Below are positions 20,669 to 20,787 of a DNA stretch of 64,000 bases, piece by piece. A model generated the notes under the pieces. That model searched no databases. It saw only the letters and a list, made by a program, of their open reading frames with translations, and had not been told where the DNA came from. Origin of the DNA: Naegleria gruberi (taxonomy: Eukaryota). Positions within the stretch are counted from its first letter, which is position 1. Each line of letters starts with the position of its first letter. Made by a program: the position numbers and the translations under genes. The DNA lies in the NCBI GenBank assembly GCA_000004985.1, contig GG738850.1, one strand, 5' to 3'.

Positions 20669-20787
20669 GGCTACGGCCATATCACGATGAATGCACCTCA
20701 TCCCGTCCGATTTGAGAAGTTAAGCATCGTAGAGCCACATCAGTACTGAGGTTGGAGACAACTTGGGAACCTGTGGTGCTGTAGTCT
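20669..20787 (+). rRNA. 5S rRNA gene (dispersed copy 1)
   Basis: 119 nt, GGCTACGGCCATA...CCCGTCCGAT...GTTAAGC...GGTTGGAGACAAC..GGGAAC..GGTGCTGTAGTCT. The 5' and 3' ends pair to form helix I. A T4 Pol III terminator follows directly. Confidence 0.85.

Follow-up and report, generated by a model that had tools for sequence, protein, structure and literature searches.

What are the 5S rRNA genes that lie among the protein-coding genes of this stretch of Naegleria gruberi DNA, and how did they come to be placed there? The window, by which we mean the whole stretch of 64,000 nucleotides that was analysed (contig GG738850.1), holds three 5S copies, of which two are intact and one is truncated. We consider it very probable that these are ordinary chromosomal 5S genes of N. 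gruberi, that each intact copy is a self-contained RNA polymerase III (Pol III) unit, and that the truncated copy is a pseudogene produced by an inverted duplication.

Two intact 5S rRNA genes

In the Rfam scan of the whole window, seven matches reached or exceeded the gathering scores, three of them to 5S rRNA and four to tRNA. The first 5S gene (copy 1) occupies positions 20669-20787 on the plus strand, is 119 nt long and matches the full RF00001 model (1-120) with 106.5 bits (E 2.3e-22). The second (copy 2), found at 60330-60448, has the same strand and length and also spans model positions 1-120, with 105.4 bits (E 4.4e-22). All 34 consensus base pairs are formed in copy 1, and the same is true of copy 2 (34/34). 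The two near-identical 119-nt genes that the initial annotation had recognized from the letters are thus recovered at exactly its coordinates, and the covariance search that it had proposed as a check places both of them, together with the third copy (45.4 bits), above the RF00001 gathering score of 38 bits. It had also reported a T run behind each copy, which is confirmed for all three: copy 1 has two putative T-run terminators, TTTT at 20787-20790 and TTTT at 20796-20799 (plus strand), copy 2 has a T6 at 60448-60453 (plus strand), and a T6 follows the third copy at 47660-47665 on the minus strand.

The two intact genes differ at a single position, nt 63, which is A in copy 1 and C in copy 2 and is unpaired in the 5S consensus structure. 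They lie 39.7 kb apart in unrelated flanks, and their homology is limited to 20667-20793 and 60328-60454 (repeat family D10; alignment A1), starting 2 nt before the gene and ending at the T run. The unit conserved between the two copies appears to be equal to the predicted transcription unit, and their similarity is presumably kept by purifying selection, by gene conversion, or by both. As for the immediate surroundings of copy 1, a gap of 118 bp separates it from the stop of ORF 17263-20550 and one of 281 bp from ORF 21069-21572; it is adjoined by a PI3K-like ORF, and a DOCK gene lies 4.3 kb from it in N. gruberi.

Related genes outside the window allow one to examine the fold by covariation. 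Willaertia magna carries an intact 5S gene (L004:14559-14677, accession JBEGDK010000079.1; 107.3 bits), and a metagenome scan with a 34-nt 5S block conserved in Naegleria and Willaertia returned two short contigs (L005 and L006) with one 5S gene each; T runs follow the gene in these three sequences as well. In the set of five sequences formed by these genes and N. gruberi copies 1 and 2, 99.4% of the cells are standard pairs on the Rfam consensus structure, and 13 of the 34 pairs are changed on both sides. None of 500 shuffles reached these pairing and covariation values, and slid controls, in which the partners were shifted by 1-3 columns, were paired at only 32-46%. Copies 1 and 2 are genuine 5S genes, with an intact fold that shows covariation.

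A separate observation concerns one of the metagenome contigs: the 5S gene of L005, from a Naegleria-like organism, differs by 1 nt from copy 2, and the similarity (L005:530-674 against window 60314-60457) reaches 16 nt upstream of the gene, over an AATTAA-like stretch near -12 to -17. The neighbouring ORF on L005 is unrelated to the neighbour of copy 2.

The source of the window

From the dispersed 5S genes the initial annotation had concluded that the genome resembles those of Yarrowia or Schizosaccharomyces, and the idea of a fungal window, in which some of the 5S genes might even be co-transcribed with tRNAs, has some apparent grounds: the window is compact, gene-dense and intron-poor, with about 34% G+C, the 5S and tRNA genes are interleaved, and the 3' end of the 5S genes, GGTGCTGTAGTCT, has what we take to be a resemblance to yeast 5S. 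The protein-coding genes nevertheless show this placement to be wrong. Over 478 aa, the product of the Sec61 ORF (55217-56653) has 100% identity with the N. gruberi Sec61-like protein, the next best being those of Naegleria fowleri (91%) and Willaertia magna (90%). The PI3K-like (PI3K-gamma-like) and DOCK (DOCK7-like) ORFs, too, match N. gruberi proteins at 100% identity, on the same 707,703-bp contig. The window has the gene order LRR-TRAPPC8...ChaC-Sec61 in common with the N. fowleri and W. magna loci, the 5S copies stand at published N. gruberi coordinates, and what Pfam recognizes (DUF4116, a 2,300-aa DOCK, TRAPPC8, paired RGS proteins and LRR proteins) is unlike the content of a yeast genome. 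N. gruberi is a member of the Heterolobosea (Discoba), and we give the fungal reading virtually no chance of being right.

In Schizosaccharomyces pombe, Neurospora and Yarrowia lipolytica, single 5S genes are dispersed among protein genes and have their own Pol III signals. The likeness of the window to these fungi is a real one, as the 5S genes are scattered and unlinked to an 18S-28S unit in both cases, but the Naegleria lineage is unrelated to them and its large rRNA genes are reported to be non-chromosomal. Dispersed 5S is therefore unreliable as a taxonomic marker, and it is what led the earlier placement to the wrong kingdom.

The neighbouring tRNA genes

The embedding of the 5S copies among protein-coding genes and close to tRNA genes for Cys, Leu and Arg had been noted from the start, and all three tRNAs are borne out. 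The tRNA-Cys gene (GCA, as read from the sequence), with an intron of about 17 nt, lies at 17115-17203 on the plus strand, 3.5 kb upstream of copy 1; it was found by Rfam (RF00005, 54.7 bits) and was not called by ARAGORN as run. The other tRNA genes are on the minus strand and were found by both Rfam and ARAGORN. They are tRNA-Leu (TAA) at 21719-21801, 931 nt downstream of copy 1 and on the strand opposite to it, with ORF 21069-21572 in between; tRNA-Arg (TCT) at 48708-48781, 924 nt upstream of the 5S pseudogene and on its strand, with ORF 47871-48536 (DUF4116) in between; and tRNA-Ala (TGC) at 56769-56842, absent from the initial annotation, which lies some 115 bp beyond the Sec61 ORF and at a distance of 3.5 kb from copy 2. 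Each 5S copy is thus found between protein-coding genes and 0.9-3.5 kb from a tRNA gene.

The dicistronic tRNA-5S unit whose presence had been put forward as a point to check is absent: the nearest tRNA genes are the two at 931 and 924 nt, each with an ORF in between, which also speaks against fungal-type co-transcription. This distinguishes the Naegleria window from Yarrowia, where tRNA and 5S genes are fused in dicistronic units. The two gaps of about 930 nt (copy 1 to tRNA-Leu and pseudogene to tRNA-Arg) could have been taken for the mark of a composite 5S-tRNA unit, and this was rejected: the orientations differ, the intervening ORFs are unrelated, and no repeat family links the two gaps.

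A dispersed family of chromosomal 5S genes

Neither the loci nor the family are new. Table S1 of Feng et al. 2012 (PLoS One 7:e36878; PMC3369914) gives 279 putative 5S genes from the JGI N. gruberi assembly, and all three window copies are among them: copy 1 is scaffold_6:244672-244788 (R33597), copy 2 is scaffold_6:284333-284449 (R33881), and the third copy is a 99-nt partial entry, scaffold_6:271664-271762 (R33886). The start-to-start spacings of these scaffold_6 entries are 26,992 and 39,661 nt, the latter being exactly 60330 - 20669, and with a single offset of 224,003 the partial entry falls at window positions 47661-47759, so that the window corresponds approximately to scaffold_6:224004-288003. 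The loci treated here are therefore the same as theirs; the origin of the truncated copy and the tRNA neighbours are not described in that study, which was the only account of Naegleria 5S organisation that our literature searches found.

The same authors reported the N. gruberi 5S genes as being apart from the rDNA units, and scored them as 'tandem arrangement: Y' in their Table 1 (PMC3369914). Could the window copies then be part of a tandem 5S array, or of an rDNA repeat unit? Besides this score, some of the Table S1 loci are indeed only 1.1-3 kb apart. Our re-analysis of Table S1 gives a different picture. The 279 entries (264 of which are at least 112 nt long) are distributed over 117 scaffolds, 57 of them with a single copy, and where neighbours stand on a common scaffold (162 pairs) the median distance between them is 33.9 kb. 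Nine of these pairs lie within 2 kb and only one within 1 kb (462 nt, with one partial member); the spacing is irregular, and no constant period could be found. The N. gruberi 5S family is thus dispersed, with a few loose and irregular clusters, and comprises about 264-279 copies. The window tells the same: distances of 39.7, 27.0 and 12.7 kb, occupied by many protein ORFs, separate its copies, copies 1 and 2 have no homology in their flanks, and Rfam found no match to SSU, LSU or 5.8S rRNA in the 64 kb. A single 5S copy is also what one finds on each of the two metagenome contigs and at the W. magna locus. The 'tandem: Y' score of Table 1 is unsupported by the paper's own coordinates and by this window. 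A tandem or rDNA-linked arrangement is highly improbable as an explanation, and for these particular loci membership of an array or of an rDNA unit is excluded; the dispersed organisation outside an rDNA unit, already proposed for the window alone, extends to the family.

This has to be read together with the other half of the Naegleria rRNA gene system. The 18S, 5.8S and 28S genes are reported to have no other location than an extrachromosomal circle (CERE) of some 14 kb, which carries a single gene of each (PMC5805870, PMC10586121). There are 3,000-5,000 such circles per cell, and the same literature states that there are 'no rRNA genes in the nuclear DNA' (PMC5805870, PMC10586121). The 5S genes of the window lie on a chromosome, and this statement therefore needs the qualifier 'except 5S'. 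Conversely, since Naegleria is reported to have no chromosomal 18S-5.8S-28S array, it is trivially true that its 5S genes lie outside an rDNA array. A few hundred chromosomal 5S genes per assembly stand against the reported thousands of rDNA circles, and this raises the question of how the dosage of the two is coordinated.

Predicted promoter, terminator and mode of expression

Candidate elements of an internal promoter can be read in the intact genes. A box A-like element, AGTTAAGC, lies at nt 50-57 and agrees with the consensus that Feng et al. quote for box A; a box C-like element, GAGGTTGGAGACAACTTG, lies at nt 80-97 and agrees imperfectly, with 2 mismatches, with the one they quote for box C (PMC3369914). 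The same study reports an internal control region and T-run terminators for the N. gruberi 5S genes (PMC3369914). Each intact copy would most likely be a self-contained Pol III unit of type 1, in which transcription is predicted to stop at the T run whose first T is also the final nucleotide of the gene. The most likely mode of expression is by Pol III, from an internal promoter. An internal promoter together with a T run of its own means that the copies may function in unrelated intergenic spacers, and a 119-bp autonomous gene able to work in any intergenic spacer could in this way become dispersed.

Two points concern the factors and sequences outside the gene. The classical type-1 promoter is TFIIIA-dependent, and TFIIIA is hard to detect by sequence. 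Table 1 of Feng et al. reports that no TFIIIA homologue was found in N. gruberi (PMC3369914), and this reported absence is an awkward fit with a promoter of the classical type. Those authors also report a TATA box for the N. gruberi 5S genes, and an upstream TATA-like element is claimed to be needed (PMC3369914). In our alignment of the upstream 60 nt of five genes, which are too few flanks to define a motif, there is no conserved block, and AT or GAT stands just before +1 in the Naegleria sequences.

The truncated third copy and its origin

The third copy is a 5'-truncated 5S pseudogene at 47665-47752 on the minus strand, which corresponds to 5S nt 32-119 (blastn, Rfam). It had been reported as a 5'-degenerate copy at 47665..47758 with its strand unstated, and this stands, with the homology ending at 47752. 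The Rfam match is longer (47665-47783, minus strand), but it reaches over unrelated sequence: the identity is 95.5% over 5S nt 32-119 by blastn, and the first 31 nt of the match are unrelated to 5S. Only 26 of the 34 pairs are formed, with 5 of 9 in helix I and 4 of 7 in helix II. As judged from its sequence, the third copy appears to be a dead 5'-truncated fragment, and blastn-short revealed no further degenerate 5S fragments in the window beyond the three copies.

The pseudogene resembles copy 2 in particular. It carries C63, as copy 2 does, and the two have in common a TTTTTTATTGG run after the gene and, further out, a ATTTATTTATTATTTAGCTnnnGCGGTAAT block. Its 3' flank (47574-47664, minus strand) is homologous to that of copy 2 (60449-60522, plus strand), as seen in two inverted repeats and in alignment A1: repeat I1 pairs 47650-47755 with 60358-60463 at 95% identity, and repeat I3 pairs 47609-47638 with 60493-60522 at 90%, the latter being the position of ATTTATTTATTATTTAGCTnnnGCGGTAAT in the copy-2 flank. 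About 75 bp of non-transcribed 3' flank are thus found in both places, in inverted orientation and 12.6 kb away from each other. Within this flank, the 17-mer ATTTATTTATTATTTAG has three occurrences in the window, for 0.06 expected, and all of them lie beside copy 2 (60493-60509) or the pseudogene (47622-47638 and 47574-47590). The two beside the pseudogene are about 48 nt apart, which indicates a probable small local tandem duplication.

How was this fragment generated? One can propose that it arose when a small piece of a locus of the copy-2 type was duplicated as DNA, in inverted orientation and together with part of the 3' flank. The alternative is that the 5S genes, or some of them, were spread by RNA-mediated retroposition of 5S transcripts, or are derived from mobile elements of the SINE or Cassandra-like kind. 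The limits of the homology between copies 1 and 2, which match those of a Pol III transcript, are what one would expect of such a process, and the 5' truncation of the third copy is common in retrocopies. The former, however, are equally well obtained if strong selection acts on the gene while the flanks drift freely, and the other marks of retroposition are absent: the copies have neither a poly(A) or other tail nor terminal repeats, and neither intact gene is directly bordered by a target-site duplication (around copy 1 the sole repeated 7-mer stands 10 nt away on the 5' side and 7 nt away on the 3' side; around copy 2 there is none). Both intact copies also fold perfectly, as expected of selected genes. 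In the case of the pseudogene, the flank that it has in common with copy 2 is not transcribed, and such a flank argues for duplication at the DNA level rather than for the retroposition of a terminated transcript. As for a 5S-derived SINE or Cassandra-type element, the flanks of copy 1 belong to no repeat family of the window, and the homology between the intact copies ends at the T run. We therefore hold retroposition, and a retroposon- or SINE-like nature of these sequences, to be unlikely, and an inverted DNA duplication remains our preferred origin for the pseudogene.

The pseudogene is found in a block of about 12 kb (~42-53.8 kb) that parts TRAPPC8 from ChaC-Sec61 in N. gruberi. The related species differ in this respect: in N. 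fowleri (L001), TRAPPC8 and ChaC-Sec61 are adjacent and the block is absent, whereas in W. magna (L004) they are separated by a single gene, which is ATG17-like. In N. gruberi the block (~42000-53800) contains genes for a TPR protein, a DUF4116 protein and a pair of RGS proteins, along with tRNA-Arg and the 5S pseudogene.

Positional conservation of the loci

Two further readings may be considered: individual loci might be positionally stable over long times in this group of amoebae, or recurrently placed at preferred sites, and, separately, exact Pol III units might have been spread via an RNA intermediate. If either were true, Naegleria would be a useful model for the upkeep of a dispersed family of near-identical rRNA genes in an organism whose other rRNA genes are extrachromosomal. 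One coincidence could be seen in the light of the first: a 5S gene lies downstream of Sec61 on the same strand in both N. gruberi and W. magna, at 3.7 kb in the former and 3.1 kb in the latter. The protein genes between and around Sec61 and the 5S gene are, however, unrelated in the two species, and with at least one 5S gene per ~50-150 kb a single coincidence of this kind is compatible with chance. At the N. fowleri Sec61 locus there is no 5S gene within 10 kb. The same question can be asked of copy 1 through its neighbours: the 10 kb to each side of the DOCK orthologue in W. magna contain neither a 5S nor a tRNA gene, a Naegleria-like metagenome contig (L008) covers only 638 bp upstream of DOCK, and no orthologue of the PI3K-like neighbour was detected at E <= 1e-30. 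In this tiny sample, a turnover of the loci fits better than their long-term stability, and we regard stable or preferred sites, or a spread through RNA, as improbable.

Other genes of the window

Local duplication is also seen among the protein-coding genes. On the minus strand, at 8875-12974, three tandem paralogous ORFs of 349, 400 and 399 aa have 63-90% nucleotide identity in blocks; they correspond to repeat families D1, D8, D12 and D14, and the middle ORF has no Pfam match. On the plus strand, at 50148-53737, two tandem paralogous genes encode RGS-domain proteins of 546 and 571 aa, which are 71-91% identical in DNA (families D2-D4, D6 and D16). At 53840-54870 on the minus strand, the ChaC-like gene is divided between two adjacent ORFs of 160 and 183 aa with an overlap of 4 nt, a split that suggests either a short intron or a frame change; the ChaC-like gene model of N. 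fowleri has 292 aa.
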